A DNA stretch of 46,833 nt, taken from contig DASRLC010000048.1 in assembly GCA_035648655.1 (NCBI GenBank), positions 1 through 46,833 on the forward strand, in the 5' to 3' direction. Source of the DNA: Polyangia bacterium. Lineage in GTDB: Bacteria > Myxococcota_A > Polyangia > Fen-1088. The notes beneath the pieces were generated by a model. It was not told where the DNA came from, searched no databases, and worked only from the letters and a program-made list of their open reading frames with translations. This document shows, piece by piece, positions 8,556 to 30,541 of the stretch (position 1 is the first letter of the stretch; each line of letters begins with the position of its first letter). The translations under genes and the position numbers were made by a program.

Positions 8556-8562
8556 CAGCGTC

Positions 8563-11701: not shown

Positions 11702-11703
11702 CG

Positions 11704-12653: not shown

Positions 12654-12741
12654 TGAGCGGAGGTCGGGCGGCCGAAGGATCGCAGGATCCTGGCCCTCTG
12701 GTGAAATGTCATGGTTGCACAAAACCGCAAACCGTGTCACT

Positions 12742-13032
12742 ATGACAAGCAGGTTACGGGAGCCTCTTCGACCACCGGCCGCGAAGGCTTTACTGGGCGA
12801 AATCCTCGAGAAGGGGAGGGTGGATATCAGTCCGCACGCCTGGAAGGAGATGCAAGACGATGGGATCAGCGTTCAGGACGTATATCAGGTGCTCCGGGGC
12901 GGGATCGTCGAGCCGGCCGAGTTCACCAACCAGTCCTGGCGCTATCGCGTCCGGCAGGGGCGCCGGTTCGTGGTCGTGACCTTCCGCTCGGAGTCATGGA
13001 CCGTCGTCGTAACCGTCTGGAGGACGAAATGA
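12742..13032 (+). CDS. DUF4258-like putative toxin
   Basis: ISPHAWKEMQDDGISVQDVYQVLRGGIVEP...VVVTFRSESWTVVVTVW fits the DUF4258 pattern. The stop codon overlaps the next start (ATGA). ATG 12706 is an alternative start. Confidence 0.55.
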   Translation: MTSRLREPLRPPAAKALLGEILEKGRVDISPHAWKEMQDDGISVQDVYQVLRGGIVEPAEFTNQSWRYRVRQGRRFVVVTFRSESWTVVVTVWRTK

Positions 13033-13541
13033 ATCGCACGAAGAAGAACGCCGACAATCTCTGCGCCGACTGCGGAGGCCGCGTCGAGCACCGGATCGAG
13101 AACTACCGGCTGCCCCTGGTCGGCGAGTGGGGGGTGACCCTCGATCATGTGGAGACGACCTTCTGCGCGAGCTGCGGGGGCAGGGGGGTGTCGATCGACC
13201 GCATGGCTCCGCTCATGCGCGGGGTCGCTGCCGCGGTGGTGCGCAAGCGCGCGCGCCTGGCACCAGCGGAGGTAACGTTTCTGCGGAAGCATCTGGAATA
13301 CACGGGGGCGCGCCTGGCGAAGGCCCTCGGCGTCACGGGACCGACCGTCTCGCGCTGGGAGGGCGGACGGGAGCCGATCGGACCCTCGGCCGATCGGCTG
13401 CTGCGTGTCCTGGTGCTGATGCACGATGGGGAGACGGAGCGGTTCGATCCAGCGCAGTTCGAGGCTATTGAAAACGGGAGCGCTCCGTTACGATTGACTC
13501 TCCGCCGGGACTCACGTGGAAACTGGGCGGAGGCCGCCTGA
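13029..13541 (+). CDS. MqsA-like antitoxin (N-terminal zinc ribbon plus XRE-type HTH)
   Basis: CADCGG...CASCGG zinc ribbon, followed by the HTH LEYTGARLAKALGVTGPTVSRWEGG. Confidence 0.75.
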   Translation: MNRTKKNADNLCADCGGRVEHRIENYRLPLVGEWGVTLDHVETTFCASCGGRGVSIDRMAPLMRGVAAAVVRKRARLAPAEVTFLRKHLEYTGARLAKALGVTGPTVSRWEGGREPIGPSADRLLRVLVLMHDGETERFDPAQFEAIENGSAPLRLTLRRDSRGNWAEAA

Positions 13542-13578
13542 GTACCGGTTTCTTGGAGCTCCATCAGCGAGGTGAACC

Positions 13579-14079
13579 ATGGCCGATTCCGACAATCCTG
13601 GCTGGTACGATCCCGAGGACACCTTGCCCCCGCTTCCAGATGAACCCGAGGACTACGGCCCGTCGATCAGATCCGGAGGGGGAGATTTTCGTTTCAGTAG
13701 GACTACAGGTGGCGGCTGGTCTGACCCAAGCGGTGTCGCGATTAGGCTTCTGTCTGAAGAGGGTTACGCCGTCCATTTCAAAGTTGACCTACCGCTCGCG
13801 GCACGACTGGCCTATGAGCTGCGGTCGCACTTGGCCGCCGACAAACGGAACACTTTGTCGCCCGTCTTCGCTCCCCCGCAGTTACCGAGCTGTCCACCTG
13901 CCGCTCACGACATCCCGCTTGGGTTCGATGCGAGTGACGAGCCCCGGTTGGCGGTCAAGAAGGATGTGCACGACGATTGGTTTTTCGTGGGCCTCCGGAG
14001 CCGGCGCGCGTCGCTGAGCATTCAGATGCAGCAGGGCGTTGCGTTCCATGTGCACAGGTGGCTATCCGACGCTCTGTAG
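13579..14079 (+). CDS. Hypothetical protein
   Basis: 166-aa ORF with a protein-like composition. No recognisable motif. Confidence 0.5.
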   Translation: MADSDNPGWYDPEDTLPPLPDEPEDYGPSIRSGGGDFRFSRTTGGGWSDPSGVAIRLLSEEGYAVHFKVDLPLAARLAYELRSHLAADKRNTLSPVFAPPQLPSCPPAAHDIPLGFDASDEPRLAVKKDVHDDWFFVGLRSRRASLSIQMQQGVAFHVHRWLSDAL

Positions 14080-14118
14080 ACGCCACTGAAGCTCGACTGC
14101 CAAGCCCGAGACGGCCCG

Positions 14119-14451
14119 ATGTCAGATGTCGATCAGCCGTATCCGCGGTTAGCCACCGCTGCAGCGGCACTCGTCGCCGAAGCGCGCCGAGAGGGAAAGC
14201 ACGCACGCACCAGCCGGTACATCGGCGTCTCGTGGTCCGTAGCGACTGAACGGTGGCGCGCCCAGATTACCCACCTCTTCCGGAACATTCACCTGGGCCT
14301 GTTCAGGGACGAGCGCCGGGCAGCGGAGGCGTACGACGCCAAAGCGATCGTTCTGCGCGGTCGGCGTGCACAGATCAATTTTCATCCCTGCACGGGCGAT
14401 GTCGTCACAGGCCAGCGGCTCGGCGATTTCGCGCCAGACGCTGGCGCGTGA
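14119..14451 (+). CDS. AP2/ERF-like DNA-binding domain protein
   Basis: SRYIGVSWSVATERWRAQI...IHLGLFRDERRAAEAYDAKAIVLRGRRAQINF is a typical bacterial AP2-domain pattern. Confidence 0.7.
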   Translation: MSDVDQPYPRLATAAAALVAEARREGKHARTSRYIGVSWSVATERWRAQITHLFRNIHLGLFRDERRAAEAYDAKAIVLRGRRAQINFHPCTGDVVTGQRLGDFAPDAGA

Positions 14452-14626
14452 CGTGGTGCAGATTGACCCGTCGCCCAGACGAGTAGAAAATCAACTCCCA
14501 AACCCGTGGGATCGAGAACTCGGGCGTCGTGGCTACTGAGGCGTGATCCGACGAGCGTGCTCTCCGGCAATGGCGGTCAAGTGGGCTTTCTTCCGGTAAG
14601 CCGACCTGATAGGATTATGCGCAGTT

Positions 14627-14905
14627 ATGCCGCTGCGTTTCCGCCGTTCCCTCCGCCTCCTTCCTGGCGTGAGGCTGAACATCAGCAAGACCGGAACGAG
14701 CGTTTCTGTCGGTGGCCGCGGCGCCACGGCGAACTTTTCGAAGCGCGGAGTCTACGGCACCGTCGGCCTTCCTGGAACGGGAATCAGTGTGCGAGAGCGC
14801 TTGGACGCGCGCTCGCCCGCGAGGCGAAGGTCGGTGCGTCCTTGGTTGATCGGAGTTGGAGCTGTGGTTGCCGCCATCGTTTGGGCCATGCTGAGGGCGC
14901 AGTGA
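14627..14905 (+). CDS. DUF4236-like protein with C-terminal transmembrane helix
   Basis: MPLRFRRSLRLLPGVRLNISKTGTSVSVGGRG fits the DUF4236 signature. The hydrophobic tail is WLIGVGAVVAAIVWAML. Confidence 0.6.
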   Translation: MPLRFRRSLRLLPGVRLNISKTGTSVSVGGRGATANFSKRGVYGTVGLPGTGISVRERLDARSPARRRSVRPWLIGVGAVVAAIVWAMLRAQ

Positions 14906-14938
14906 TGTCGGCTACGGAGCCATCGGGAGATTTCGAGC

Positions 14939-15637
14939 ATGTCTGACCCTACCGAGCAGAAGCCGTTTGCAGATCCATCGCCTTTCGCAGCGGCCGAATT
15001 CGTGGACAATCCCGAGCCGCGGTGCCCTTGTATCCTGCTCGTGGACACGTCCGGCTCCATGGGTGGCGACCCGATCAACCAGTTGAATTCCGGGCTCGTT
15101 ACGTTCAAGGATGAACTGGTCGCGGACGGACTCGCAGCGAAGCGAGTCGAGGTGGCGGTCGTCGGCTTCGGCCCGGTTCGCGTCCTGTCCGACTTCCTCA
15201 CGCCCGACAATTTCCTACCACCGAGCCTTCTAGCCGAGGGCGACACACCGATTGGTGCCGCGATCATCCAGGCGCTCGACATGCTCGACCAGCGTAAGAA
15301 GTCCTACAAGGCCGGCGGGATCTCCTATTACAGGCCGTGGATATTCCTCATCACCGATGGTGCGCCGACGGACGCCTGGAACGAAGCCGCACGCCGTGTG
15401 CGCGAAGGTGAAGAAAAGAAGCAGTTCCAGTTCTTCGCGGTGGGCGTGCAGGGAGCGAATATGGACGTGCTCTCCAAGGTCTCGGTCAGGCAGCCGCTCA
15501 TGCTGAAGGCGCTCCGCTTCCGGGAGCTCTTTGCGTGGCTGAGCCAGTCATTGCAGAACGTGTCTCGCTCGCAGGTCGGCGAGCAGGTTCCGCTCGAAAA
15601 TCCCACGACCCCCAATGGCTGGGCCACGGTTGCTTAA
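14939..15637 (+). CDS. vWA-domain protein, TerY-like (TerY-P triad component)
   Basis: MIDAS motif [11 protein letters not shown]. Size is about 230 aa. A PP2C gene and a kinase gene follow immediately. Confidence 0.85.
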
Positions 15638-15642
15638 CCTGA

Positions 15643-16461
15643 ATGCCTGCGCCGAACGCGAGGCTCCGACCTTGGCGGTATGCCCTCGCCTCCGTGATGG
15701 GCACCTCGCATGTGAAGAGCGGCGATCCTTGTCAAGATGCCGGCGCGTGCGAAGTCGTTGATGGGCCAGACGGCAGCGACGTACTCATAGCAGTCGCGTG
15801 CGATGGTGCAGGGAGCGCGAAGCTTTCTCAAATTGGTTCCGCTGAAACCTGTCGCTTCACCGTACAGCGAATCAAGGAGCTGATGAAGAGCGGCCTTCCG
15901 GTCGTGGACATCACGCAAGAGGTGGCGACGCGGGTCGTTCTCGAGGCGCAGGACAACCTGCGTGCAACGGCCGAGAGCGCTGGGGCCACAGCTCGCGATC
16001 TCGCGTGCACCCTAGTGGCGGGGATCATTGCCCCTGACGCTGCGGCGTTCTTTCAGGTCGGCGACGGCGTCGCGATCGTGGGACAACGTGACGAGCCGGT
16101 CAATGAGTTCTGCTGGGTCTTCTGGCCGGAGCGCGGCGAGTACGCAAACACGACTACCTTCTTGAGCGAGGATCGGGTCGCGGAGCACCTTAAGTACGAC
16201 GTTGTTCGGCGCGGAATCGACGAAGTCGCTCTTCTGACCGATGGCATCCAGGCCCTGGTACTCGACTACAAGGGACATGCCGCTCACGCCCCTTTCTTCA
16301 GCCGCATGATGGCCCCACTCCGGGCGCGGCAAGATGCAGGCCACATAGGCAGCCTCAGCTCCGCGCTCGCCGTCTATCTTGACTCGCCTCCGATTAACGA
16401 TCGGACAGACGATGACAAGACACTTATTCTCGCGTGTCGGCGAACCACGGACGATGAATGA
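15643..16461 (+). CDS. PP2C-family Ser/Thr phosphatase (TerY-P triad component)
   Basis: GTSHVKSGDPCQDA...IAVACDGAGSAKLS fits the PP2C_2-type pattern. The gene starts 5 nt after the vWA stop codon. Confidence 0.8.
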   Translation: MPAPNARLRPWRYALASVMGTSHVKSGDPCQDAGACEVVDGPDGSDVLIAVACDGAGSAKLSQIGSAETCRFTVQRIKELMKSGLPVVDITQEVATRVVLEAQDNLRATAESAGATARDLACTLVAGIIAPDAAAFFQVGDGVAIVGQRDEPVNEFCWVFWPERGEYANTTTFLSEDRVAEHLKYDVVRRGIDEVALLTDGIQALVLDYKGHAAHAPFFSRMMAPLRARQDAGHIGSLSSALAVYLDSPPINDRTDDDKTLILACRRTTDDE

Positions 16462-18401
16462 ACACGCGGCTCACCACTCCAAAGGGCGACCCGCTTCGTT
16501 TCGGGCGTGAACTTGGTCGGGGCGGAGAGGGCACGGTGTTCGACCTCGCCGACTACCCGGAGTTCGTAGCGAAGATCTATCACTCGCCGCCGGACCGATC
16601 GAAGGCAGAAAAGCTGGCAGCGATGGCGAACGGCAGCACCGATCGCCTCCGTCGAATCTCCGCCTGGCCTCTGGACACCATTCACGACGCGTCCAGTGGT
16701 GTAGTCCGCGGCTTTGTCATGCAGCGCGTTGCGAGGCAGAAGGACATTCACGTCCTCTACGGCCCGAAGACACGGCTTCGTGACTTCCCGGATGCGACCT
16801 ACCGATTCCTCGTCCACGTGGCGGCGAACCTCGCACGCGCGTTTGCCGTCGTTCACGAGCACGGACACGTGATCGGCGATGTGAACGAGGGCGGCATGTG
16901 CGTGTCAGTGCAGGGCAAGGTTACCCTCGTCGACTGCGACAGCTTCCAGGTGCGCGGTCCGCAGGGTGAATTCACCTGCGATGTAGGCATTCCCATCTAT
17001 CAGCCGCCGGAGCTTCAGAGCGTTCGCAGCTTTCGTGGCGTGGCTCGCACACCGAACTACGACAACTTTGGTCTGGCCGTCCTCGTCTTCCGAACGCTCT
17101 TCCTCGCGCGGCATCCGTTCGTGGGTCTATTTCAAGGCGACGGCGACATGCCCATCGAGCGGGCGATCCGAGAGCTTCGGTTCGCGTATGGCCGCGATGC
17201 GGCTCAACGACAAATGAAGCAGCCCCCCGGCAGCCTCGGCCTTGGGGCTGTTCCGCCTTCGGTCGCTGAGCTGTTCGAGCGAGCTTTCCTTGAGGCAGGC
17301 GCCCAAGGTAACCGACCAGCCGCGATTGAGTGGGTAACGGCCCTCGATGGATTCATATCAGAGTTACGAAAGTGCTCACGGAATCCTGGCCATGAGTATG
17401 CCCCATCCCTGACGCAGTGTCCGCTTTGCGAGATCGAGGGTCGCGCCGGCGTATTACTCTTCTTGCCATCTCACGAGGCCAGCGTCCAGGGGCCGACAGT
17501 CAACATCGACGATATATGGCATGAGATGGTTCCGATAATCGCATCGGCTCGCTTTCCCGTAGTCTCCCGTGCGAGCGTACCAGCCCTTCCACCGCCCGAT
17601 AGCGTCGTGGAGTTCAAGCGACGACAATTGCGGGCCTCAACGATTTTGTGGGTCGGCATTGGCGTGTCGGTCCTGCTGGCGATGATTTGGAACCCTGTTG
17701 CCCTTGCGGGTGTCGTGGTCTTTCCCGCTCTCGCGCTCGTTGTACGCGGACGTCCACCCGACGAGGCACGGAACGTAGGCAAACGACTGTCCGCCGCGCA
17801 GGAGCGGTTCAACGCGATTCTTCGCCACGTCGAGAGGGAGCGAGCCATTAGCGCCCTACCCGGGCTCGAAGCCAGGGCCGAGGCACTGTACCGGGGGCTC
17901 CGAAATTTCCCACAGCGCCGGTCAGACCGCCTTGAGCAGATGGAGCACGGCCGCTTCGAGCGTCAGATGCGCCGCTTCCTTGACCAGTTCCAAGTGGAGG
18001 ACGCTCGCCTGAAGGGTTTCGGTCGGAGTCTATTCACAACGCTCGAGTCGTACGGAGTCACGACGGCTGACGATGTCACCGAGGCAAGGCTGACAGTAAT
18101 CCGTGGCTTCGGGCCTAAGCGAAAATCTGCGCTTCTCGACTGGCGTCGAACCATCGAAGCCAGGTTCAAGTTCAATCCATCCGACCCAGCAAACGCGCAG
18201 GAGCGGATTGGCGTCGAACGAGAACTTCAACTCGAGTACGCGATGGAGGTCGCCGAACTTCGACGTCTCGCGGAGCAGATCAAGGGCCATGCCGGCCCTC
18301 TTTGCCAGCGTATCGCGGCGCTCAACGGGGAGCTCGGGCAGGCAAAGCAGGAACTAGCGACAGTGCAGGCCGCGGCCGCGGCACTCGGCAAGGCAGCGTA
18401 A
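16458..18401 (+). CDS. Ser/Thr protein kinase with two predicted TM helices and a C-terminal helix-hairpin-helix region (TerY-P triad component)
   Basis: Gly-loop GRGGEGTV, catalytic Lys in VAKIY, catalytic loop HVIGDVNEGG, then LVDCDSF. Hydrophobic stretch ILWVGIGVSVLLAMIWNPVALAGVVVFPALALVV. HhH-like VIRGFGPKRKSALL. The start overlaps the PP2C stop codon (ATGA). Confidence 0.85.
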   Translation: MNTRLTTPKGDPLRFGRELGRGGEGTVFDLADYPEFVAKIYHSPPDRSKAEKLAAMANGSTDRLRRISAWPLDTIHDASSGVVRGFVMQRVARQKDIHVLYGPKTRLRDFPDATYRFLVHVAANLARAFAVVHEHGHVIGDVNEGGMCVSVQGKVTLVDCDSFQVRGPQGEFTCDVGIPIYQPPELQSVRSFRGVARTPNYDNFGLAVLVFRTLFLARHPFVGLFQGDGDMPIERAIRELRFAYGRDAAQRQMKQPPGSLGLGAVPPSVAELFERAFLEAGAQGNRPAAIEWVTALDGFISELRKCSRNPGHEYAPSLTQCPLCEIEGRAGVLLFLPSHEASVQGPTVNIDDIWHEMVPIIASARFPVVSRASVPALPPPDSVVEFKRRQLRASTILWVGIGVSVLLAMIWNPVALAGVVVFPALALVVRGRPPDEARNVGKRLSAAQERFNAILRHVERERAISALPGLEARAEALYRGLRNFPQRRSDRLEQMEHGRFERQMRRFLDQFQVEDARLKGFGRSLFTTLESYGVTTADDVTEARLTVIRGFGPKRKSALLDWRRTIEARFKFNPSDPANAQERIGVERELQLEYAMEVAELRRLAEQIKGHAGPLCQRIAALNGELGQAKQELATVQAAAAALGKAA

Positions 18402-18403
18402 CT

Positions 18404-18661
18404 ATGTGGCGAAAGCTACCTCCTAGTGTTCAGGAAGTCGTCTCGGCGATCTGCGACGGTGCCGCGGGGATCTTGCAGCAGAATCTCTTCCTCGGACGTG
18501 GCGATCTGGCCCGGGAGAAGGCGCGGATATTCGGCAGCGTACGGATGGGCACGAACGTCGTCGTTGTCGCGGCCGTCAATACCCGCACCGACCTGATTGT
18601 GTTGCACGCCCTGAGCGCCGCCGACGGTAGCCAAATGACTTGGAAGGGCGTGGCAGCATGA
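18404..18661 (+). CDS. Hypothetical small protein (85 aa) linking the kinase and helicase genes
   Basis: ATG lies 2 nt after the kinase stop codon. Its own stop overlaps the helicase start. No recognisable motif. Confidence 0.45.
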   Translation: MWRKLPPSVQEVVSAICDGAAGILQQNLFLGRGDLAREKARIFGSVRMGTNVVVVAAVNTRTDLIVLHALSAADGSQMTWKGVAA

Positions 18662-21537
18662 TGCATCCCATCCAGAGGCGCTTCGAGGCGGAAGACCTGG
18701 TCCGCCGTCGCCGGTCCGACGAACAAGCCCGAACCGCTTCCTCGCAGCGCCAGGGCCGGATCGATCCGAACCCGCACCAGATCGACGCGGTTATGTTCGC
18801 GCTCGGTCGGATCCCCGAGGGCGGCTGCATTCTCGCCGACGAGGTCGGCCTCGGGAAGACGATCGAAGCGGGACTGGTCCTCGCACAACTCCGCGCGGAG
18901 GGAAAGCGGCGACTTCTTATCATCGTGCCCAAGCCTTTGCTCGGCCAGTGGCAGAACGAGCTTTTCACACTGTTTGGGATCGAGGCCCGGGTTGGCAGCG
19001 CGCGTCCCGATGGGTTCGACGGCACAGGCGTGTTCATCGTCGGACGGGAGCTGGCGGGTACAGAGACTGTCTCGAGCATCCTGGCGAACGGTGAGCCGTT
19101 CGATCTCGTCGTCATCGACGAGGCACATGAACTCTTCGCCGGCATCTATCGCCGCTATGACCGGCGCGGAGACTACCGGGAGGAGTCGAAGGTCGCGCTT
19201 ATCGCGCAGCGGATACGTGACGCGATCGGCCCCGCACCGGTGCTGCTGCTAACGGCCACTCCGATTCAGAACTCGCTCGCCGAGCTCTGGGGACTCGTCC
19301 AGTACGTGGAACGGACGGGAACGCTACTGGGCAGCCTGGATACCTTCCGCAAGGTCTTCTGCCCGGGCGACGAAGCGATGATCGCGGAGGGTCAGGACGA
19401 CGAGCTTCGCAGGCGCATGTCCTCGGTCTGCCAGCGCACGCTGCGCCGGCAGGCGGAGGAGTTCCTCGAGCGACCGTTCGCTAAGCGCCTCTGCCGGCTG
19501 TTTAAGTACACGATGGACCCCGACGAACGTGCGCTCTACGAGGACGTGACTCGCTGGCTGCTGGAGCCCGATCTCGTCGCGTTTTCTGGGGGCTCGCGAC
19601 ATCTGCTCCTCCTCGGGTTCCACCGACGGATGGCGTCGTCGACGGCGGCGCTTGCCGCCAGCCTTGAGCGCGTCTGCGCACGTCTCGATTACATCGTGCG
19701 CGGTGAGCCGGTCGAGGACGTCGCGGTCCGAGAGTTCCTCGCCGATCTGGAAGAGGACGAAGAGGACATCGAGCCGGAGGTCGCCGCTGCCTCAGCCGCC
19801 CAAGCCGATTCTGGGCGTGCCCGCATCGTGCTCGAGCGGGTGCGCACATTCGCGGGCCGCGCGCGCCGCCTGGGACCGGGCGCGAAGGCCGGGGCACTTC
19901 TGCAAGCGTTAAAGCAGCTTGGGGAGCGCAAGGTGCTCGTCTTCACGGAATCCATTGCCACGCAGGACTTCCTGTTCGAGCTGCTCGTCGCCAATGGATT
20001 CGCGCCAACGGATGTAACGCTCTTCCGCGGTACGAACGACTCTCCGCGGGCCACGCAAGCCCTCGAGTGGTGGCTGAGGGAAAATTCTGCGCGAGAGAAG
20101 GTCGGTCGCGACATCGCTGTGCGCCTCGCCCTAGTTCACGAATTCAAGAATCGTTCCCGGGTGATGATCGCGACGGAAGCTGGCGCCAAGGGCCTGAACC
20201 TCCAATTCTGCGACGTGGTGGTGAACTATGATCTTCCCTGGAACCCACAGCGGATCGAGCAACGCATCGGCCGCTGCCATCGCTACGGCCAGGAGCACGA
20301 CATCGTCACCGTCGTGAACTTCATCTCTACCGACAATGAGGCCGACCAACTCACGTTCGAGATTCTCGCACGGAAGCTGGACCTGTTCGGGCGTGTGCTC
20401 GACGCTTCGGACCACGTCCTGCATGAGCCGGCTACCGATGCGCCCGAGGCGATCGCTGGCTCGCTCGGCCTTGCTGTCGAGCGCGAGCTGGAGCGAATCC
20501 ACGAACAAGCGCGGTCCAAGGAGCAGCTCGTGCGCGAGCTCGAAGGTCTGCGCGACGACGTGGACGGTCGCCGCCGAACGGTCGAAGACGGATGGCATCG
20601 CGCGGCGAGTCTCATCCAGAGCCGGCTCGACGAGGACGTGCAGCGCGTCTTCCGCCGGATCCGCGACGCCCTCCCGGAGAGCCTCGCCGGCGTGGATCGC
20701 GCGGTTGAGCGTGTCGTTTCCGCGTATCTCGAGGCGCGCTCCATTCCACACCACCGCAGCGAGAAGGACGGACGGATCCTTCTCGACGTCGACGGCGCAC
20801 GATTAGTGATTGGCAGCGCCAAGGGGTTCGAGGGCGCTGAGCCGTTGCACCTCGGGCACTCCTTGGTTGGGGAGGCCATCGAGGATGCCCGCCGCGTCAG
20901 CGCCGAAGTGAAGGGGATTCTGGTCATCCCGACGAATGCCTCGCGGAGGGTACGCGAGCTTCACGGCCGGCGCGGACGCCTGGTCATTGCGAAGGTGGCC
21001 TACGCTGGGTTCGAGCCTGTCGATCGACTGATCGTCTTGGCTGCATCTGAGCGGCGCATGCTCGATAGCGAGCTGGCGAGGGAGCTCGTCACGCTTCCGA
21101 TGGAGTCTACCCCCTCAGACATTCCAGCGGACACTCCGGACGAGTTAATTGAAGATGCCATAGACGAGGCTGTCTTCCTCGATCAGGAGGAGGTCGAAGC
21201 CGGCGAGCGCACACGGTTCGATGCGGCGCTCGCTCGCCTTGAGCGCTCGGTGGAAGACCGCATGCTCATTCTGCGGCGTCGCCTTTCGGAGCTTGAGCAA
21301 AGGAAGGGAAACGCCCTGGCTGAGCGAAATCGGGCGCTCTCGGTCGAGGCACGCGAAGGAGCAGAGCGCACCCTGGGGAAGCTTGAAGAGGAAGGTTCCG
21401 AGCTCGAGATGGCGCTGGTCGAGATGGAGCAGCGCACCGAGGAGGCGTACCGCACGCGGCGCGAGTCGCTCACGCTTCGCCGCGCGCCGGCTCCCTCGGT
21501 TGAACGACTCGTGGACGTCAAGTTCGAGATCTCATGA
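18658..21537 (+). CDS. SNF2-family helicase with a long C-terminal extension of unknown function
   Basis: Motif I ADEVGLGKT, motif II VVIDEAHE, motif III LLLTATPIQNSLAELW, motif VI QRIGRCHRYGQ. The C-terminal roughly 370 aa carries no recognised domain and ends in a coiled coil. The start is taken at the ATG at 18658; 18640 is an alternative. Confidence 0.9.
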   Translation: MMHPIQRRFEAEDLVRRRRSDEQARTASSQRQGRIDPNPHQIDAVMFALGRIPEGGCILADEVGLGKTIEAGLVLAQLRAEGKRRLLIIVPKPLLGQWQNELFTLFGIEARVGSARPDGFDGTGVFIVGRELAGTETVSSILANGEPFDLVVIDEAHELFAGIYRRYDRRGDYREESKVALIAQRIRDAIGPAPVLLLTATPIQNSLAELWGLVQYVERTGTLLGSLDTFRKVFCPGDEAMIAEGQDDELRRRMSSVCQRTLRRQAEEFLERPFAKRLCRLFKYTMDPDERALYEDVTRWLLEPDLVAFSGGSRHLLLLGFHRRMASSTAALAASLERVCARLDYIVRGEPVEDVAVREFLADLEEDEEDIEPEVAAASAAQADSGRARIVLERVRTFAGRARRLGPGAKAGALLQALKQLGERKVLVFTESIATQDFLFELLVANGFAPTDVTLFRGTNDSPRATQALEWWLRENSAREKVGRDIAVRLALVHEFKNRSRVMIATEAGAKGLNLQFCDVVVNYDLPWNPQRIEQRIGRCHRYGQEHDIVTVVNFISTDNEADQLTFEILARKLDLFGRVLDASDHVLHEPATDAPEAIAGSLGLAVERELERIHEQARSKEQLVRELEGLRDDVDGRRRTVEDGWHRAASLIQSRLDEDVQRVFRRIRDALPESLAGVDRAVERVVSAYLEARSIPHHRSEKDGRILLDVDGARLVIGSAKGFEGAEPLHLGHSLVGEAIEDARRVSAEVKGILVIPTNASRRVRELHGRRGRLVIAKVAYAGFEPVDRLIVLAASERRMLDSELARELVTLPMESTPSDIPADTPDELIEDAIDEAVFLDQEEVEAGERTRFDAALARLERSVEDRMLILRRRLSELEQRKGNALAERNRALSVEAREGAERTLGKLEEEGSELEMALVEMEQRTEEAYRTRRESLTLRRAPAPSVERLVDVKFEIS

Positions 21538-22694
21538 GTGGGGAGGACGACGTGGCATTCCGATTGCTGCACACCGCCGACTGGCATCTAGGCAAACGTT
21601 TCCCGTCATTCGACGAGTCCGCGGAGAAGGACCTTCGCCGCGCCCGGCTCGATGTCCTCAGCGAGGTCTTCGCCGCCGCCACGCGCAACGTCGTCGATGC
21701 GGTCCTTTGTGCAGGCGATCTCTTCGATGAGCCTAATCCGCCCGCGGACTGGTGGCGTGGGCTCCTGCACATCCTGAGACGGTTGCCGTCGGGCTTTCCG
21801 CCCGTCTTCCTACTTCCAGGAAACCACGACCCCCTGCTGTCCGACTCCGTGTGGATGACTGGACACCCCTTCAGGGCCGGTCTTCCGGGCTTCGTGCGAG
21901 TCGTCGAGCGCGAGGATTTCCGCGAGGAGATCAAGCCAGGGCTGGTGCTCTACGCTGTCCCCTGCTTTTTGAAAGCGGGAGCAGACGATCCGGTCGACAA
22001 GATTCCCCCACGGATGCCTGGCGATGAGTCGGTGCGCGTGGGCCTCGTGCACGGGACAACGTTCGACCTCGCGAACTGCGAGATCCACTTTCCGATCCGC
22101 GCCGGTGGCGCCCGCGCTCGCGGGCTCGACTATCTCGCAATAGGCGACACGCACGGCTACCGTGTGGTGCAGGACGATCCGCCGGTGGTCTACCCTGGGG
22201 CCCCGGAACCGACGGCGTTCGACGAGATCGACGCTGGGCATGTGGTCCTCGTCTGCTTCACGCGAACTCGTGGACGCCCACACCTGCGGAAGGTTCCAGT
22301 CGCGCGCTGGAAATGGCGGTATGAAACGATTCGCGACCTGGGCACGCTGCGGGCGCTCGCCGCCGATGACCTGCACGCGACGGTCCTCCGCATCGCGTTT
22401 GACCTCGACGTCGACCTCCGGGAAAGAGACGAGATAGAGCGCATCCTCGACGGTCTCGCTGGGAACGAGGCCCAACATAGCCGAGTGGGCGTCCTCGACG
22501 CTGACCGAGCGGGTATCCGCATCCGGATTAGCTCGGTTGCCGGTGCATTTCCGCCCAACCTGCCACCCGTGTTGCAAACCGTCGTCGACAACTTACAAGC
22601 GATCGCTGCGGACCGTGATCCAGATGCGGCGCGACGCGCACGGATCGCGCTGTACAAGCTCTCGGCCCTTACCCAGCCACGGAGCCCACGCTGA
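21534..22694 (+). CDS. SbcD/Mre11-like metallophosphoesterase nuclease
   Basis: Calcineurin-fold motifs LHTADWHLG, CAGDLFD, LPGNHD, LVHG and IGDTHG. The start overlaps the helicase stop codon (ATGA). Confidence 0.85.
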   Translation: MSGEDDVAFRLLHTADWHLGKRFPSFDESAEKDLRRARLDVLSEVFAAATRNVVDAVLCAGDLFDEPNPPADWWRGLLHILRRLPSGFPPVFLLPGNHDPLLSDSVWMTGHPFRAGLPGFVRVVEREDFREEIKPGLVLYAVPCFLKAGADDPVDKIPPRMPGDESVRVGLVHGTTFDLANCEIHFPIRAGGARARGLDYLAIGDTHGYRVVQDDPPVVYPGAPEPTAFDEIDAGHVVLVCFTRTRGRPHLRKVPVARWKWRYETIRDLGTLRALAADDLHATVLRIAFDLDVDLRERDEIERILDGLAGNEAQHSRVGVLDADRAGIRIRISSVAGAFPPNLPPVLQTVVDNLQAIAADRDPDAARRARIALYKLSALTQPRSPR

Positions 22695-25600
22695 TGGAGC
22701 TCGTCTCGCTGGACATCGAGCGCTTCGGCCGCATCGCGCGCGCGGGAATCGGGTTCAAGCCGGGACTGAACGTGCTGCACGGCGCGAACGAGGCCGGGAA
22801 ATCGTCAATCGCCCAGGCGATCCGGTTCGCTCTTTTGCTCCCATCGTCGTCCAGCGCGGCCGAGCCGTGGATCCCCTGGGGCGGCGGCGGCGACCCGATG
22901 GTGACCCTCGTGTTCAGGAATGGGGCCGACTACTACCGGGTGACGAAAGTGTTTGGCACGAGCACCGCGTCGCTTGAGCGATCGTCGGATGGCAGCGGAT
23001 GGGCGAATCCAACTCGCGGCCGCGAAGTTGAAGCTCGGTTACGCTCGCTGCTTCAATGGGGGATTCCCGAGCCCGGCGGCGCGAAGGCGCCGAAGGGCCT
23101 GCCCGAGAGCTTCCTCGCGAGCGCCTTACTCGCCGACCAGGACCACGTGGCCAATATCTTCGAACAGGATCTCGATGGAGACGGCGTCGATTCCGGGCGG
23201 GTGCGCGTGCGCGCCGCGCTGCAGGCAATGGCACAAGATCCACTCTTCAAGTCAGTGCTCGATGCGGCCCAAGCGCGCGTGGATGAGGCGTTTACGTCGA
23301 ACGGCGGGCGTAAGCGGGGGGCAGGTGACCCGTTCAAGAAGATGGCAGAGGAGGTCGCCAAACGGCAGCGAGAACGGGATGAGGCCGAGCAAGCCGTCAC
23401 CACCGGTCGGGTGCCAGCGCAGCGGGTCAAGGATCTCCGGCGCGACACCGCCCAGGCAGAGAGCGATCTTCACGAGAAAGCCGCCCAGCGGGAGGCACTT
23501 GAGCGCAGACGCGCTCGGCAAATTACGCTCGCTAAGGCGGCTGATGAACGGAAGAAGGGGCAAGCACGCGTCGACGCAGTGACTGAGGCCGAGAAGAACG
23601 TGAAGGCGGCCGACGACGTACTTGACGACGTCAAGTCCAGCCTTGCGGTCCTGCGAAAGGCAGAGGAGGATGCGCGCCAGGCGCTCGAGGCCGAGACTGC
23701 TTTCGCCTCGGCGGCCAGGGAAAGGCGCAAGGGAGAGCTTGCACAGGAGGAGGCGGGGATCCTCCGGGAGCGCGACGCGCTTCGCACGAGACAAGCGCGC
23801 CTCGCCCTGGCACACGATCTCCGCAAGGCAGGCGACCTTCACCAGCAGGGCGAGGCGATCGAGAAGACGCTGAAGACTCTCGACAGCGAAATCGTGGCGC
23901 TAGAGGCTGTGGAGCCCTGGACCGAACTCCAGACCACCAAGGTGTCGCTCGAGACGGCGATTCAGCGCGAAGCGACCATTGTTGATCTTCTGACCAAGGC
24001 GACGGAATTGCGGTCGGAAGCGGCAACTGAGTGGCCGGCCTCGAGTTCGAATCGGCTTCCGGATGGTAAGCGTCTAGACGAACTCCGCGGCCTGTGCCAC
24101 AGGCTCGATCTGGCGGAGGCCAAGTTGGACGTCGGCCTTTCGGTCGAGGTGCGCGGAGCACCAGCTGCTTTGGTGTCCGTTGACGGTGCCGCGAAAAAGG
24201 CGCAGACATCGCCTTTCGCAGTCCAAGCCCAGAAGGCTGCCGAACTTGACTTTGGCGGTGGCATCGAGGTCGTTATCCGTGGCGGTCAGGCTGCCCACCG
24301 TGCGGAGGCCGAGCGGCTGCACAAGGAATGGCACGACGGGACAAAGTCGTTGTTCGCGAGCGTCGGTGTTACCGACTTTCTTCGGCTCGAAGACGCATGT
24401 CGGCTGGACGCCGAGAAGAAGGCGCGCGCAGAGACCCTGATGGGCGAAGCGGCCAAGGTCGATGCGGAGCGAACTGCTTTGGGGAATCCGGCAGGAGAGA
24501 GAGTCCGGTTTGTCGAGCGAATCGCAGACCTGGAGGGCCGCATCCAAGGAACCGGTACCAGCCTGATCGAAGCGGCCGCGAAGGCGCATGGTTCCAAGCC
24601 GCGGGCGGCTCTCAGCAAGAGGATCGCCGAGCGCGAGTCAAAGCGGTCGGAGCTTGCGCAGCTCCGGGGCCAGGAGTCTGCTTTGCGGGAGCGCTCGGCA
24701 CCGAGCGCGGATGGAACGGTCATCGAAGATGTGGATGCTGAGGCGAGGGCCCTAGCGCGAGCAGCGCAAGATCTCGATAGGCGCGAAAGGGAGATCGACG
24801 GGAAGCGCACGGTTCTAGATGGGCCGCCGCTCGAGAGCAGCGCGCTTGACGAAGTGGCTAAAAAGTCGAAGCAGGCTTTGGAGGTGGCGCTCGCTACGAT
24901 CGTAACCGCGACCAGCGATCACGACAGCTGGAGCGCCCGACTGCAGGAGCGGCGTATGGGATCGGCCAACGTAGACATCACGGCGCTCACGAGGGAAGAG
25001 GAAGCCGCGCGTACGGCCAGCAGCAACGACGGTGCTCTCGTCGAGGAGTCGGCGCTCGCCGAAGCACGAAACGCCGAGGAGACCGCGAGGATCCATCACG
25101 AAGGGCTTCTCGGCGAACTCCGGAAGGCTGAGGGCGCCCTTCAAGCGTGCGGTGGTGCCGCCGCCGATGAAAAGCTACGCGAGCTGGAGGATGCACTGCA
25201 GCGCGCGTGTGAAAAGCAGGCGACTGTGGAGGACGAGTACGAGGCCTGGAAGCTGCTCGCCGAGACGCTGAAGGATGCCGAGCGCACTCAGGCGACGCAC
25301 CTCGGGAACGTGCTCGCCCCCGAGCTCGCTGCCCGCTTACAGGCCCTCGCCGGCGAGCGGTATAGCGGGATCGCGCTCTCGCCACATCTCCGCTTGGAAG
25401 GAATCGATGCTTCTGGGGGACAGCGCGAGCTCGAACGGTTGTCGATCGGCACGCGCGAGCAGATCTCGACGTTGTTCCGCCTATGTCTCGCCGAGCGCTT
25501 ACGGTCCGCATTGCTCCTCGACGATCAGCTGGTGCAGAGCGACCCCGATCGTCTTCGCTGGTTCCGCCGCGCGCTCCGGCAGACGGCCGCGACGGGCGTA

Positions 25601-25699
25601 CAGGTAGTGGTGCTGACGTGCCGTCCCGACGACTACCTCGAGTCGGCCGAGACGCCGCCGCCCCACGTAATCGATCTCGGCACGGTAATCACCGTCTGA
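22694..25699 (+). CDS. SbcC/Rad50-like (YhaN-type) SMC-family ATPase without a CxxC hook
   Basis: N-terminal Walker A GANEAGKSS. A coiled coil of about 800 aa rich in Ala/Glu/Arg. C-terminal signature-like LSIGTREQ and Walker B ALLLDDQLVQSD. No CxxC is present anywhere in the coiled coil. The start overlaps the SbcD-like stop codon. Confidence 0.85.
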   Translation: MELVSLDIERFGRIARAGIGFKPGLNVLHGANEAGKSSIAQAIRFALLLPSSSSAAEPWIPWGGGGDPMVTLVFRNGADYYRVTKVFGTSTASLERSSDGSGWANPTRGREVEARLRSLLQWGIPEPGGAKAPKGLPESFLASALLADQDHVANIFEQDLDGDGVDSGRVRVRAALQAMAQDPLFKSVLDAAQARVDEAFTSNGGRKRGAGDPFKKMAEEVAKRQRERDEAEQAVTTGRVPAQRVKDLRRDTAQAESDLHEKAAQREALERRRARQITLAKAADERKKGQARVDAVTEAEKNVKAADDVLDDVKSSLAVLRKAEEDARQALEAETAFASAARERRKGELAQEEAGILRERDALRTRQARLALAHDLRKAGDLHQQGEAIEKTLKTLDSEIVALEAVEPWTELQTTKVSLETAIQREATIVDLLTKATELRSEAATEWPASSSNRLPDGKRLDELRGLCHRLDLAEAKLDVGLSVEVRGAPAALVSVDGAAKKAQTSPFAVQAQKAAELDFGGGIEVVIRGGQAAHRAEAERLHKEWHDGTKSLFASVGVTDFLRLEDACRLDAEKKARAETLMGEAAKVDAERTALGNPAGERVRFVERIADLEGRIQGTGTSLIEAAAKAHGSKPRAALSKRIAERESKRSELAQLRGQESALRERSAPSADGTVIEDVDAEARALARAAQDLDRREREIDGKRTVLDGPPLESSALDEVAKKSKQALEVALATIVTATSDHDSWSARLQERRMGSANVDITALTREEEAARTASSNDGALVEESALAEARNAEETARIHHEGLLGELRKAEGALQACGGAAADEKLRELEDALQRACEKQATVEDEYEAWKLLAETLKDAERTQATHLGNVLAPELAARLQALAGERYSGIALSPHLRLEGIDASGGQRELERLSIGTREQISTLFRLCLAERLRSALLLDDQLVQSDPDRLRWFRRALRQTAATGVQVVVLTCRPDDYLESAETPPPHVIDLGTVITV

Positions 25700-25803
25700 A
25701 AAGCTGGCCGTTGTTTCTTTCGTCGTGCCGACGGAATATCGGCAAAATTCTCCATGAAGGTCGCGAGGGGAATGCGGCACGCCGACGTCGCGGGGAGAAG
25801 AAG

Positions 25804-26073
25804 TTGACCGCGCCCGTCGGGGCGGCGCCGGGCGAGCCGAAGATCCCTCGGCTAGTGATTGAGCGCTTTCGCGGTATCTTGTCGCTCAGCTGGAACCCCG
25901 GAGCCGCCGTGAAGGTGATTCTCGGAGGTGGCGACGCTGCAGCGGCGCCTCCCGCGAAGTGGGTACTTCGGTCTTTAGTTGACAGAACCATTAATATCAA
26001 CAAAACCCACATGATTCAAAGAGTTAAGTTGCGCACGAAGTTGTCGCGGGCCGATCACAATCTCTCTCTATAG
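25804..26073 (+). pseudogene. Possible remnant of an AAA/OLD-type ATPase N-terminus
   Basis: IPRLVIERFRGILSLSWNPGAAVKVILGGGD matches the beta-strand lead-in to a Walker A loop. The GxxGKS motif itself is replaced by GGGDAAAAPP. The reading frame then runs into AT-rich sequence, and only a TTG start is available. Confidence 0.25.
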
Positions 26074-26114
26074 AGCCTGGGCTGGACCTAGGTTCGGAAA
26101 GGAGGACCCAACCC

Positions 26115-26288
26115 ATGACCAAATTCAAGTTGCTCAACGTCTGGACGGCAGAACGAACTCTGCCGGTCCCGCTCGCCGTGCGGCTCATCGCGCTGTTTCG
26201 GCTCACTGGCAGGCCACACGCCTTCGCCGTCAACGCCGGCCCATCACCGACCGTGACCGTCACGTTCGAGATGGCGACCCTCAGCTAA
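26115..26288 (+). CDS. Small hypothetical ORF (57 aa)
   Basis: Below the cutoff of the ORF track. ATG is preceded by the strong ribosome-binding site GGAAAGGAGGACCCAACCC. Third-position G/C is mostly high. No motif. Confidence 0.35.
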   Translation: MTKFKLLNVWTAERTLPVPLAVRLIALFRLTGRPHAFAVNAGPSPTVTVTFEMATLS

Positions 26289-26597
26289 TCCCGCGCCAAG
26301 GTCCCGAGGCCGCCGGCATCGCGCTGGCGGCCGTTTCGGGCCGACTACTTGTTCTGCAGCCGCTCGGCGAGCGCCAGCGTCGCCTCGACACCTCACTCCG
26401 CGCCGATGCTTGGATCTGCTGCGCACCTTCAGTAGGAAGGTGGCGATCTTATGCTTTCGGCGGATGCCAGCGTTGGTTGGCCAGTCTAATAGCGGCTTCC
26501 TTCAGCCCGCAACCGCAGGTCGTGGCGACGGCTCCAACGGCGGGCCTTCGGGGGCAGGCCTTAAGGTGTGACACACTAAGTCACGATGTGCGACTTC

Positions 26598-26626
26598 TTG
26601 TTTTGCGTCCTCACTTGAGGTACAAA
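26598..26626 (+). promoter_or_regulatory. Candidate sigma-70-type promoter
   Basis: TTGTTT-N17-TACAAA, about 30 nt upstream of the ATG at 26657. It is preceded by the small palindrome GTGTGACACAC at about 26565-26575. Confidence 0.3.
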
Positions 26627-26656
26627 AACAGGAAGTCGCCAGCCGAGGAGAGCCAA

Positions 26657-27379
26657 ATGAGCAAAGCCATTGTCGTTCACGAGGAGTCTAGCGCCGTCAA
26701 ATCCAGGCTCGCTGAGTTGGGGGTTCCCGACGAGCAAATGCTTCGCGACGCCGTCGCCGAGGGCGAGGTGACCAGGGCGTCGTTTCACAAGAACGTGCCG
26801 GGGATGGCGGTCGGTTGCGCCAAGTGGGGCACCATCGTGGGTGGCGTGCGCACGAGGCTCGTCCCGCACGGCTGGATCTCCAGCGGCCGGGGCCACCTGG
26901 AAGAGACCCTCAACCCCGAGACGAAGGTCTCCATCGTTGTGTCGACGGGCGACGATGTGACGGGCGTCAACGGCGACGCCGACCCGAAGACGAAGTATCC
27001 GAAGGGGATGGCCACGAAGGAGGCCATCAAGCAGAACAACGCGCAGTTGGATCTGTGGTCGAGGCTCTACCCGGGCGATCCGGCCTATATGCCCGGGTTC
27101 AAGCCAGACATCTCGCCTGCCGTCACCGCCAACGACGCCGGGACCGCCGCCGACAGCGACGGCATCATGACGTGGGTGCTCTTGGTCGTCCGGACCGACG
27201 ACGAAATCCGTTGCGAGTTGTCGCTCCCATACGGCATCGGAATCGACAATGTCGTCGAGTCGTGGGCGGAGCGGATCATCCTCAAACCCATCCCGCTCGA
27301 CGGCTCGTCGAAGGTCGAGGTCGTGCCGGTCGAGCCGACGCCCGAGATCGACGTGCTGGTCACGCGTCGGAAGTTGTAG
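26657..27379 (+). CDS. Hypothetical protein (240 aa), upstream partner of the XRE-ImmA/IrrE gene
   Basis: ATG preceded by GAGGAG. The composition is protein-like. No family was recognised by eye. Confidence 0.6.
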   Translation: MSKAIVVHEESSAVKSRLAELGVPDEQMLRDAVAEGEVTRASFHKNVPGMAVGCAKWGTIVGGVRTRLVPHGWISSGRGHLEETLNPETKVSIVVSTGDDVTGVNGDADPKTKYPKGMATKEAIKQNNAQLDLWSRLYPGDPAYMPGFKPDISPAVTANDAGTAADSDGIMTWVLLVVRTDDEIRCELSLPYGIGIDNVVESWAERIILKPIPLDGSSKVEVVPVEPTPEIDVLVTRRKL

Positions 27380-27390
27380 GAGAGCTGGTC

Positions 27391-28470
27391 ATGTTCAACC
27401 CCGAACGTCTGGCGCTAGCCCGGCGCCGACGGGGGATGACGAAGAAGGCGCTCGCCGACGCCGCGGAGATGTCCGTCAAGAGCATCTCCGACTACGAGAA
27501 CGATCATGCCGTTCCGTCGGAGGCGGCTGTTGCCGCCATCGGTCAAGCGCTTCGTTTCCCCGTCGAGTTCTTCGAGGGCCCGGACCTTGAATCCCCCACA
27601 GCTGACAACGCGAGCTTTCGCGCGATGTCGGCGATGACGGCCTCGCAGCGCGAGGCTGCCCTCGGCGCGGGCACGCTCGCTATGGTGCTCTGCGACTGGA
27701 TCCAGGCGCGCTTCGACCTGCCGAAGGTCGACGTACCCACCTACCGCGAGATAGACCCCGAGGCCGCCGCGGCATCGGTGCGCTCGGAGTGGAAGATCGG
27801 CGTCGCGCCGATCCGCAACATGATCCACCTGCTGGAAGTGAAGGGCGTCCGGGTCTTTTCGCTCGCCGAGCAGTGCCGCGAGGTCGACGCGTTCTCGCTG
27901 TGGTGGCGTGGGCAGGTGCCGGTCGTCTTCCTCAACACGATGAAGACGGCCGAGCACAGCAGGTTCGACGCTGCCCACGAGCTGGGGCACCTCGTGCTTC
28001 ACAAGAGGGGCACGCACGGCGGGCGCGAGGGCGAGTTGGAGGCCGACGCGTTCGCTTCTGCCTTCTTGATGCCGCGCGAGAGCGTGCTCGCCTCCGCGCC
28101 GAAGTTCGCGAGCCTCGACGCGATCGTGCGTCTCAAGAAGACGTGGAGTGTATCGGTCGCAGCCCTCAATCGAAGGTTGCACGACGTCGGTGCCGTGTCC
28201 GATTGGCACTACCGGAGCCTCTGCATCCAAATCGCGAAGTTGGGCTATCGGAAGAGCGAGCCGCAGGGCATCGAGCCCGAGCGGTCGCAGGTCCTCGAAA
28301 AGGTCCTTCAGGCGCTCAGGGAGGAAGAGATCGGCACGGCGGAGATCGCGCGCGAGCTGAAGCTCTCACGGCATGACGTCGACGAGCTGCTCTTCGGGCT
28401 GGCGACAGTACGAGTCGAAGGGGGAGGGCAGAAGACGCCGCGATCGAGAGACCATCTCCGACTCGTCTGA
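27391..28470 (+). CDS. XRE-family HTH fused to an ImmA/IrrE (COG2856) zinc metallopeptidase domain
   Basis: N-terminal HTH RRGMTKKALADAAEMSVKSISDYEND. HExxH motif in AAHELGHLVLH with downstream EADAFASAFLMP. Confidence 0.85.
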   Translation: MFNPERLALARRRRGMTKKALADAAEMSVKSISDYENDHAVPSEAAVAAIGQALRFPVEFFEGPDLESPTADNASFRAMSAMTASQREAALGAGTLAMVLCDWIQARFDLPKVDVPTYREIDPEAAAASVRSEWKIGVAPIRNMIHLLEVKGVRVFSLAEQCREVDAFSLWWRGQVPVVFLNTMKTAEHSRFDAAHELGHLVLHKRGTHGGREGELEADAFASAFLMPRESVLASAPKFASLDAIVRLKKTWSVSVAALNRRLHDVGAVSDWHYRSLCIQIAKLGYRKSEPQGIEPERSQVLEKVLQALREEEIGTAEIARELKLSRHDVDELLFGLATVRVEGGGQKTPRSRDHLRLV

Positions 28471-29364: not shown

Positions 29365-29454
29365 TATTTCACATCTCTCCCGCGTCTCCCGACCTGCTTC
29401 CGTAGCGTTCCCGCGCTGATTCTTGTCCAGTCCGCGCGTTCTTCGACGACAACC

Positions 29455-30477: not shown

Positions 30478-30541
30478 CGTGGGAAGGAATCTTACTCCGA
30501 TCGGCGGACCTGCGGGTATGGCGCCAGCCGGCGCCCGATAG

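Follow-up and report, generated by a model that had tools for sequence, protein, structure and literature searches.

The stretch of DNA analysed here, referred to as the window, comprises positions 1-46,833 of contig DASRLC010000048.1 in the Polyangia bacterium assembly GCA_035648655.1. On its forward strand, at 14627-25699, it carries an 11-kb array of eight open reading frames (ORFs), in which a DUF4236 gene and a TerY-P-type triad (a vWA protein, a PP2C phosphatase and a Ser/Thr kinase) are followed by an 85-aa ORF (orf85) and by a trio of genes for an SNF2 protein, an SbcD-like nuclease and an SbcC-like ATPase. The array is probably a mosaic in which two modules, each self-contained and mobile on its own, were joined by recombination in a defence island and are co-transcribed yet independent. 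The first module would be the DUF4236 gene with its YegL/PphC/YegI-type TerY-P cassette (14627-18401). The second (18658-25699) would consist of the SNF2 protein, a nuclease of predicted Mre11/SbcD fold with Rad50-binding-type C-terminal helices, and the SbcC-like ATPase.

Organisation of the cluster

Seven genes run head to tail behind the DUF4236 gene, and the preliminary description of the locus had each of them and every junction right, as judged from the ORF listing and from direct reading of the junctions. The DUF4236 gene (14627-14905; Pfam DUF4236, 3e-20) ends 33 nt before the vWA gene (14939-15637; Pfam VWA, 1.6e-8), which is separated by 5 nt from the PP2C gene (15643-16461; Pfam PP2C_2, 1.3e-45); this in turn shares an ATGA overlap with the kinase gene (16458-18401), which has no Pfam match and was assigned by full-length alignment with YegI. 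After a 2-nt gap comes orf85 (18404-18661), which overlaps the SNF2 gene (18658-21537; SNF2-rel_dom, 8.9e-24, and Helicase_C) by ATGA. A second ATGA overlap joins SNF2 to the SbcD-like gene (21534-22694; Metallophos, 3.2e-11; TIGR00619 sbcd, 2.5e-21) and a TGATG overlap leads into the SbcC-like gene (22694-25699), the last of the cluster, with AAA_23, AAA_27 and SMC_N matches on the N-terminal 45 of its 1001 residues.

The eight proteins were scanned with PADLOC 2.0.0, Pfam and NCBIfam. Catalytic motifs are intact in the kinase, the phosphatase, the metal ion-dependent adhesion site (MIDAS) of the vWA protein, the SNF2 protein, the nuclease and the Walker A and signature motifs of the ATPase, and a coding-type GC1/GC2/GC3 pattern is seen in all the genes, orf85 included, in a sequence of 64% GC. 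From this layout all eight ORFs are predicted to be co-transcribed, and probably are. A sigma-70-like promoter match lies upstream of the DUF4236 gene (14463-14491, + strand), weak evidence in that it is the sole match in 13500-27000, where 1.3 would be expected by chance. The pattern scan likewise found no excess of terminator-like signals inside the cluster (9 seen, 9.4 expected). As both counts are at chance level, the scan speaks neither for nor against a single transcript.

The triad-trio junction

Alignment with the trio locus L175 (P0025) shows orf85 to be, by homology, the relic of the 3' end of a helicase-restriction-nuclease gene of the PDC-S37/Hhe type (a PADLOC candidate system, and Gao_Hhe), and the triad-trio junction to be a recombination scar. 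Residues 7-82 of orf85 are 48% identical to the last 75 residues of a 1981-aa protein of L175 (E 1e-18, same frame), and at the DNA level window 18445-18572 is 76% identical to L175 6921-7048. The 1981-aa protein scores 1258 bits with the PADLOC PDC-S37 model and 540 bits with Hhe, and its gene stands directly upstream of SNF2 with a 4-nt overlap. Homology of the window to triad loci stops at 18343-18397, and homology to L175 is continuous over 18445-25680; at the other end of the triad, DNA homology to the triad locus L169 begins at window 14624. These breakpoints, taken with the match of orf85 to the gene end in L175, indicate that the triad cassette replaced most of a PDC-S37/Hhe-type gene. 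The DUF4236-triad cassette displaced all but the last ~75 codons of a gene that overlapped the start of SNF2, leaving orf85 as the remnant. The ATGA overlap of orf85 with SNF2 is thus inherited from the older arrangement of the L175 type and, since orf85 is a truncated gene, the junction is recent.

The type of gene that was lost is intact in L175, L009 and L017. In the window the complete protein (a DUF4011-superfamily 1 helicase-restriction endonuclease of ~1500-2000 aa) is absent and only the 85-aa C-terminal fragment is left, so that it cannot contribute to function there. A role for orf85 as a conserved adaptor between the two halves was considered and is ruled out, because it is an orphan, with self-matches only in protein libraries of 5.8 billion and 1.84 billion entries, and its homology is to the end of a gene of the PDC-S37 type.

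Distribution of the trio and the triad

More than 2,300 homologs of the nuclease, mostly metagenomic, were collected at E <= 1e-5. The order SNF2-SbcD-SbcC is constant in every locus examined and overlaps of the same 4 nt and 1 nt are seen again in L002, L004, L087, L088, L172 and L175; the trio is therefore a real, conserved and translationally coupled three-gene unit. Wherever the DNA is intact the SNF2 protein is conserved over its full length (residues 1 to about 959, 47-84% identical) directly upstream of the nuclease, and it matches only piecewise in L001, L012 and L014. The trio was found in only 19 of 185,579 species-representative genomes, all of them metagenome-assembled, from at least five phyla (Myxococcota, Acidobacteriota, Gammaproteobacteria, Chthoniobacterales and Rokuibacteriota). 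There is no conserved fourth gene: all-versus-all BLAST of the flanking ORFs of 21 trio loci gave four cross-locus pairs, besides the three triad genes of L087 that match those of the window, and no flanking family is common to more than two of the loci.

One alternative is that the array forms one integrated system, in which the membrane-bound YegI-type kinase, the PP2C phosphatase and the vWA protein sense infection or incoming DNA and gate the SNF2/Mre11-like/Rad50-like machine by phosphorylation. Its appeal lies in the tight junctions, along which the scan shows no conspicuous promoter or terminator signal inside the cluster, and in the L087 locus, where both modules are again side by side. 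Phosphorylation control of Mre11-Rad50 (MR) nucleases also has a precedent in eukaryotes, where the Mre11-Rad50 endonuclease is stimulated by phosphorylated Sae2/CtIP.

Against this alternative, of the 22 trio loci whose upstream DNA is long enough, about 20 have no triad, and only the window and L087 have one within 10 kb. Neither vWA, PP2C, kinase, orf85 nor DUF4236 genes were found in the trio loci L001-L024. The loci without a triad include ones closer to the window than L087, whose SbcD is 77% identical to that of the window: no triad lies within 10 kb in the P0004 locus (SbcD 84% identical) or in L175 (79%), nor in L172 (P0011; 84%), where just 1.7 kb of upstream DNA is present. In L087 the triad lies on the opposite strand, diverging from SNF2 and without a relic, so the translational coupling is not conserved, and in L175 an equally tight coupling, a 4-nt overlap, ties the trio to a different upstream gene.

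The same independence is seen from the side of the triad. The distant triad loci considered are 80 metagenome loci among the matches listed, with kinases 33-42% identical to that of the window; the close clade was sampled protein by protein. In the 80 loci the order vWA-PP2C-kinase is kept wherever upstream DNA is present, except in L167, and neither the trio nuclease nor the ATPase occurs in any of them. In the 31 of these loci with at least 3 kb past the kinase, the next ORF is mostly convergent or distant. The E. coli triad likewise stands alone, without the trio. Among the close relatives, with kinases 69-75% identical, the neighbours vary: in the P0123 locus the triad adjoins a ResIII/YagJ helicase, in L170 small ORFs with no recognisable effector. 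In L169 (12079-14980) a DUF4236-vWA-PP2C-kinase cassette 72-83% identical to that of the window has McrB (AAA_5) and McrC behind it on the same strand, after a gap of 135 nt, an arrangement that parallels the published CoCoNuT/TerY-P association. That a triad of the same clade stands directly upstream of McrBC would also suit a front end for DNA-targeting effectors, as the integrated alternative supposes. In four distant loci an ORF of ~190-206 aa begins at a distance of -3 to +38 nt from the end of the kinase gene (L155 7467-8033, L156 7757-8359, L161 11932-12549 and L165 11964-12548) and is possibly a recurrent fourth gene of YegI-type triads.

Each module is therefore autonomous and swaps partners. 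The preliminary description had taken the tight coupling as the mark of a single sensor-plus-effector system, which is not supported, given the trio loci without triads, the listed triad loci without trios, the variable partners and the scar at the junction. From the recent and facultative nature of the coupling we infer that the trio does not need the triad as a gate. TerY-P-like triads are moreover reported to protect alone (Gao 2020, as cited in PMC11090510), and we consider it unlikely that the array is one integrated system.

Several points nevertheless weigh against the mosaic of independent modules. Triad and trio stand side by side twice, co-directional in the window and divergent in L087. 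The differing arrangements, the lack of a relic in L087 and the closer trio relatives (84% and 79%) without a triad suggest two independent juxtapositions, more than would be expected of random placement. A distant SbcD/SbcC-like pair also lies on one strand with a triad in plasmid pBSY17_2 of Sphingobium sp. RAC03 (L177/L180, 64-78 kb). In PMC11090510 and PMC4978471, which both cite Anantharaman 2012, TerY-P triads are proposed to control the DNA-processing or restriction modules beside them, and the role put forward in PMC11090510 is the very one that the integrated alternative requires. Finally, the defence role of the trio is read from its neighbours only, and several trio loci have housekeeping, purely metabolic or unannotated neighbours.

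On pBSY17_2, which is conjugative, the order along the strand is AbiEi/AbiEii, the SbcD/SbcC-like pair, DUF4297 with HerA, vWA with PP2C and kinase, a tyrosine recombinase (integrase) and a GIY-YIG nuclease. The kinase of this triad has 719 aa and is annotated as a 'topoisomerase C4 zinc finger' protein.

The triad proteins

The first three genes had been described as a TerY-P-type vWA/PP2C/kinase triad, and this is borne out by the Pfam VWA and PP2C_2 matches, the conserved kinase motifs and the verified order and junctions. The vWA protein is of the YegL/TerY type, with the MIDAS motif D-x-S-x-S present as DTSGS, and in BLASTP is 63% identical to E. coli YegL (6e-96). The phosphatase is a PphC/YegK-type Ser/Thr phosphatase, 33% identical to E. 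coli PphC (6e-39). The kinase aligns over residues 2-634 with E. coli YegI, with 33% identity over 647 residues (1e-114).

The protein begins with an N-terminal kinase domain, continues with a zinc-ribbon-like motif (C-H-C-C), two hydrophobic segments and a coiled coil, and ends in a C-terminal helix-hairpin-helix (HhH). In an alignment of 17 homologs the G-loop, Lys39 (VAK), Asp141 and Asn143 of the catalytic loop (HxxGDxN), Asp159-x-Asp161 of the metal-binding segment (D-C-D-S-F) and PPE185 are invariant, as are Cys306, His312, Cys321 and Cys324 of the zinc-ribbon-like motif, Gly550 and Gly552, the two hydrophobic segments and the C-terminal HhH. Some homologs carry Pfam PF14520, and the Joint Genome Institute label for the homologs is 'DNA-binding helix-hairpin-helix protein with protein kinase domain'.

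The window triad is thus, by alignment, a full-length counterpart of YegL/PphC(YegK)/YegI of E. coli K-12: all three proteins are similar over their full length and in the same order, and the zinc-ribbon-like motif, the two hydrophobic segments and the C-terminal HhH region of the kinase are shared with YegI. The E. coli module differs in that yegJ is inserted, yegI is set apart from the rest, and there is neither a DUF4236 gene nor an adjacent DNA-targeting module. YegI crosses the membrane twice and is active as a kinase (bioRxiv 10.1101/819920), and PphC dephosphorylates it in vitro (bioRxiv 10.1101/303594). By its sequence, the window triad would be a membrane-anchored phospho-switch, in which PP2C could act as the reset phosphatase and the cytoplasmic HhH tail of the kinase could contact DNA at the membrane.

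The DUF4236 product is a small protein ending in a C-terminal hydrophobic helix. Its gene is a facultative fourth member of the triad cassette: in the P0123 locus and in L169 the vWA gene is immediately preceded by a homolog, 75% identical in L169, and the gene was found in 7 of the 80 distant triad loci among the matches listed.

The anti-phage system Gao_TerY (Gao et al. 2020) and the triads embedded in type II/III-A CoCoNuT McrBC systems have the same content of vWA, PP2C and Ser/Thr kinase as the window and stand beside DNA/RNA-targeting, restriction-type modules. According to PMC11090510 the kinase of the triad validated by Gao has a C-terminal OB fold and those of the CoCoNuT triads have a zinc ribbon, whereas the window kinase appears from its sequence to have transmembrane segments, a coiled coil and an HhH that align with YegI in place of the OB fold. 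The gene content agrees, and the kinase tail is of the YegI type. PADLOC 2.0.0 gave no match for the window triad; as E. coli YegL/YegI and the Sphingobium triad were equally unmatched, PADLOC cannot decide membership of Gao_TerY.

The trio proteins

The best matches of the SNF2 protein are the DrmD models of class 1 DISARM: DISARM_DrmD_b (NF038318) scores 385.7 bits against a cut-off of 950, and NF038317 scores 225.1 bits against 610. These models span residues 145-936, aligning through 930-936, so that the C-terminal region, previously described as uncharacterised, is shared with DrmD. By PADLOC the protein is nearest to DISARM DrmD and to the helicases of BREX, Hma and Dpd, and the nearest solved structure is RapA. 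DISARM itself is ruled out for the locus, as the DrmD scores are far below the equivalog cut-offs and none of DrmA, DrmB (DUF1998) or DrmC (PLD) was found among the window ORFs scanned, some small ORFs being left unscanned. The partners of SNF2 in the trio differ too, being MR-like proteins.

In the nuclease Asp16, His18, Asp62, Asn97, His98, His173, Asp205 and His207, which cover all the metallophosphoesterase metal-binding motifs, are invariant among 14 homologs. An AlphaFold2 model (confidence score pLDDT, 82.8) was compared with the PDB using Foldseek, and every one of the top 50 matches was an Mre11/SbcD structure, among them T. maritima Mre11 at full length, Rad50-binding helices included. 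The earlier assignment of an Mre11/SbcD fold with intact metal motifs is supported by both results. The curated scores lie below cut-off (TIGR00619, 76.6 against 77.65; PRK10966, 56.9 against 450).

The SbcC-like family comprises coiled-coil ABC ATPases of 1000-1260 residues, with a coiled coil of ~700 residues in the window member. Its description as a Rad50/SbcC-like ATPase is consistent with the N-terminal AAA_23, AAA_27 and SMC_N matches, the family motifs and weak matches to Rad50 models (15-33 bits, cut-offs 700-1087). The family alignment shows a Walker A motif GxNxxGKS, a signature LS[VI]GT[RQ][ED]Q and a TC[RH]P motif. The Walker B is hhLDD[QH], in which the canonical catalytic Glu is missing, and the H-loop position is Arg or His, often Arg. 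No CxxC zinc hook was seen in 16 family members, the sole conserved cysteine column being Cys976 in TC[RH]P. From these motifs ATP binding is likely and ATP hydrolysis is uncertain. With no zinc hook and a DD Walker B, the presumed clamp may dimerise and cycle in a manner unlike that of canonical Rad50.

By analogy with SbcCD and Mre11-Rad50, the ATPase and nuclease would act together as an ATP-controlled clamp of the MR type, which recognises DNA ends, hairpins or protein-blocked DNA and then cuts. The SNF2 motor, to judge from other SNF2 families, may translocate on duplex DNA and either deliver the clamp or clear proteins ahead of it, and the outcome would be degradation of foreign or aberrant DNA.

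Comparison with known systems

The closest likeness of the trio is to SbcCD/Mre11-Rad50. Its nuclease has, in the model, the Mre11/SbcD fold with all metal ligands, the capping domain and paired C-terminal helices, it is paired with a long coiled-coil ABC ATPase, and the two genes overlap as in operons of the sbcDC type. The differences are considerable. At the sequence level the likeness extends over no more than ~100 N-terminal residues of the nuclease and ~100 residues of the ATPase; the CxxC zinc hook is lost, LDD[Q/H] takes the place of DE in the Walker B, and the H-loop His is often Arg. SNF2 is an obligate third partner, and the trio is sporadic and looks horizontally transferred.

With Lamassu, Wadjet, Gabija, Septu and PARIS the trio shares the combination of a coiled-coil or ABC ATPase as DNA sensor with a nuclease and the location in defence islands. 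It differs from them in that the nuclease is of the Mre11 type, not Cap4, TOPRIM or HNH, and in the addition of an SNF2 motor. The PADLOC matches of LmuB, GajA, PtuA and AriA to the SbcC-like protein are mostly confined to the Walker A region, about 45-50 N-terminal residues; a few (mad3 and two LmuB models) reach further, all of them weak (best 4e-8, ~30 bits). The nuclease has no PADLOC match, and PADLOC 2.0.0 holds no model for the nuclease or the ATPase of the trio. It had been argued that the trio is not Wadjet, Lamassu, Gabija, PARIS or DISARM, and these weak ATPase matches, the unmatched nuclease and the sub-threshold DrmD scores agree with that. More generally, the trio corresponds to no named system in PADLOC 2.0.0, Pfam, NCBIfam or the literature searched. 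Nothing relevant to a defence system of SNF2 with SbcC, SbcD, Mre11 or Rad50 was found in that literature, which left out Anantharaman 2012 and Krishnan 2020.

The neighbours of the trio: defence or repair

Eighteen large flanking ORFs of trio loci were annotated. The commonest identifiable neighbour is a helicase-nuclease of the PDC-S37/Hhe type, found beside the trio in four loci, with the relic in the window as a fifth case. These are large DUF4011/AAA_11/AAA_12/MTES_1575 genes that PADLOC matches as PDC-S37/Hhe-like (L175 1186-7131, the one with the 4-nt overlap; L009 1402-6009; L017 1541-6700; and one in the P0004 locus), and their products may truly work together with the trio. Next to the trio there is also an Mza-like set (Dcm, HATPase_c_3, DUF4420 and Z1) in the P0004 locus and, in L016, a Ppl-like ATPase; other neighbours are HsdR-like and UvrD-like helicases, a colicin-DNase/SUKH pair and transposases. 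A protein with VIT and vWA domains, unrelated to YegL, is encoded ~900 nt upstream of the trio in L018 (4422-6077, + strand).

It seems improbable, but deserves consideration, that the trio is instead an accessory DNA repair or maintenance module, in which MR-type processing of ends and hairpins is combined with an SNF2 motor, carried by mobile elements and hitch-hiking near defence genes. The nearest characterised relatives, SbcCD and Mre11-Rad50, are indeed repair nucleases, and some trio loci have purely metabolic neighbours. RadC lies near the trio in the window and, within 10 kb, in L001 and L002, and in L172 a gene for Ku, a protein of non-homologous end joining, lies convergently 470 nt downstream of the trio (9241-10089, - strand), a single case that bears on the choice between repair and defence. 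No SbcD-like match was found in the phage collection. The plasmid collection gave only distant two-gene relatives, an exonuclease with an ATPase of ~880 aa (~30% identity) and without SNF2, on proteobacterial plasmids and chromids; those on Rhizobium and Variovorax replicons sit among housekeeping genes, which would fit a repair function, and others sit in defence islands.

What speaks against a repair module is the very patchy spread of the trio over so many phyla, the absence of any shared flanking gene family, the kinship of its SNF2 protein with DISARM DrmD and the BREX, Hma and Dpd helicases, and the recurrence beside it of PDC-S37/Hhe-type, Mza-like, Ppl-like, restriction-modification (RM) and RosmerTA genes. 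The distribution fits a horizontally mobile accessory module that lands often, not always, in defence islands, and the trio is a reasonable candidate for a DNA-targeting defence system.

A bolder proposal, which at present looks quite improbable, is that the trio is a new self-sufficient anti-phage or anti-plasmid system with interchangeable upstream front ends, either PDC-S37/Hhe or the YegI-type switch. In the window the switch would then tune an MR-type nuclease, a bacterial parallel to the phospho-regulated Mre11-Rad50 of eukaryotes.

Genomic setting of the window

The location of the trio among defence genes is confirmed by a dense defence island directly downstream. It opens with a RosmerTA pair of toxin-antitoxin type (26477-28470, + strand). 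RmrT (ORF 26477-27379, + strand) is matched by PADLOC at 5e-48 on residues 66-298. RmrA, a helix-turn-helix (HTH) and M78 peptidase protein (ORF 26815-28470, + strand), is matched at 1.8e-153 on residues 193-551, and its real start is thus near 27391. An AbiJ-like/Abi_C gene (28600-29364, - strand), a PDC-S02 Mrr-type nuclease gene (29455-30702, - strand; 6.8e-131) and a gene for an MmeI-like type IIG RM restriction-methylase (30542-33766, + strand; 1.4e-226, also DrmMI at 5e-74) follow. The last gene of the 28600-37045 region encodes a 1088-aa protein with DUF4379 zinc fingers, a superfamily 2 helicase and Methyltransf_8, which matches no PADLOC family well.

Upstream, the genes at 2121-13541 are of types typical of conjugative or integrative elements. 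They include, on the + strand, a type IA topoisomerase, a sigma-54 activator and a sigma-70-family factor, together with RadC (10236-10733), an SprT-like protein (11970-12653) and an HTH/MqsA-like protein (12711-13541). Further downstream and unrelated to the cluster, 40167-43661 encodes a Peptidase_A4 protein (40167-41084), DUF6236 (41950-42894, - strand) and an HTH protein (42951-43661, - strand).

Implications

Triads beside DNA-processing or restriction modules were already described in 2012 (Anantharaman et al., as cited in PMC11090510 and PMC4978471) and again in 2024. As this placement is published, the general concept of a triad next to a DNA module is not new, and the trio is the more novel element. 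The relic ORF in the window records the replacement of a helicase-nuclease gene by a kinase/phosphatase/vWA cassette that inherited its overlapping junction, and the junction is a caution against taking translational coupling as proof of functional integration. Relatives of E. coli YegL/PphC/YegI are now seen to adjoin McrBC, the trio and a ResIII/YagJ helicase, which points to functions in DNA-related conflict. If the trio is a defence system, the DrmD-like SNF2 protein would gain a second, simpler context in which its role could be dissected, and an MR-type nuclease driven by an SNF2 motor would join the immune machines based on SMC and ABC ATPases.

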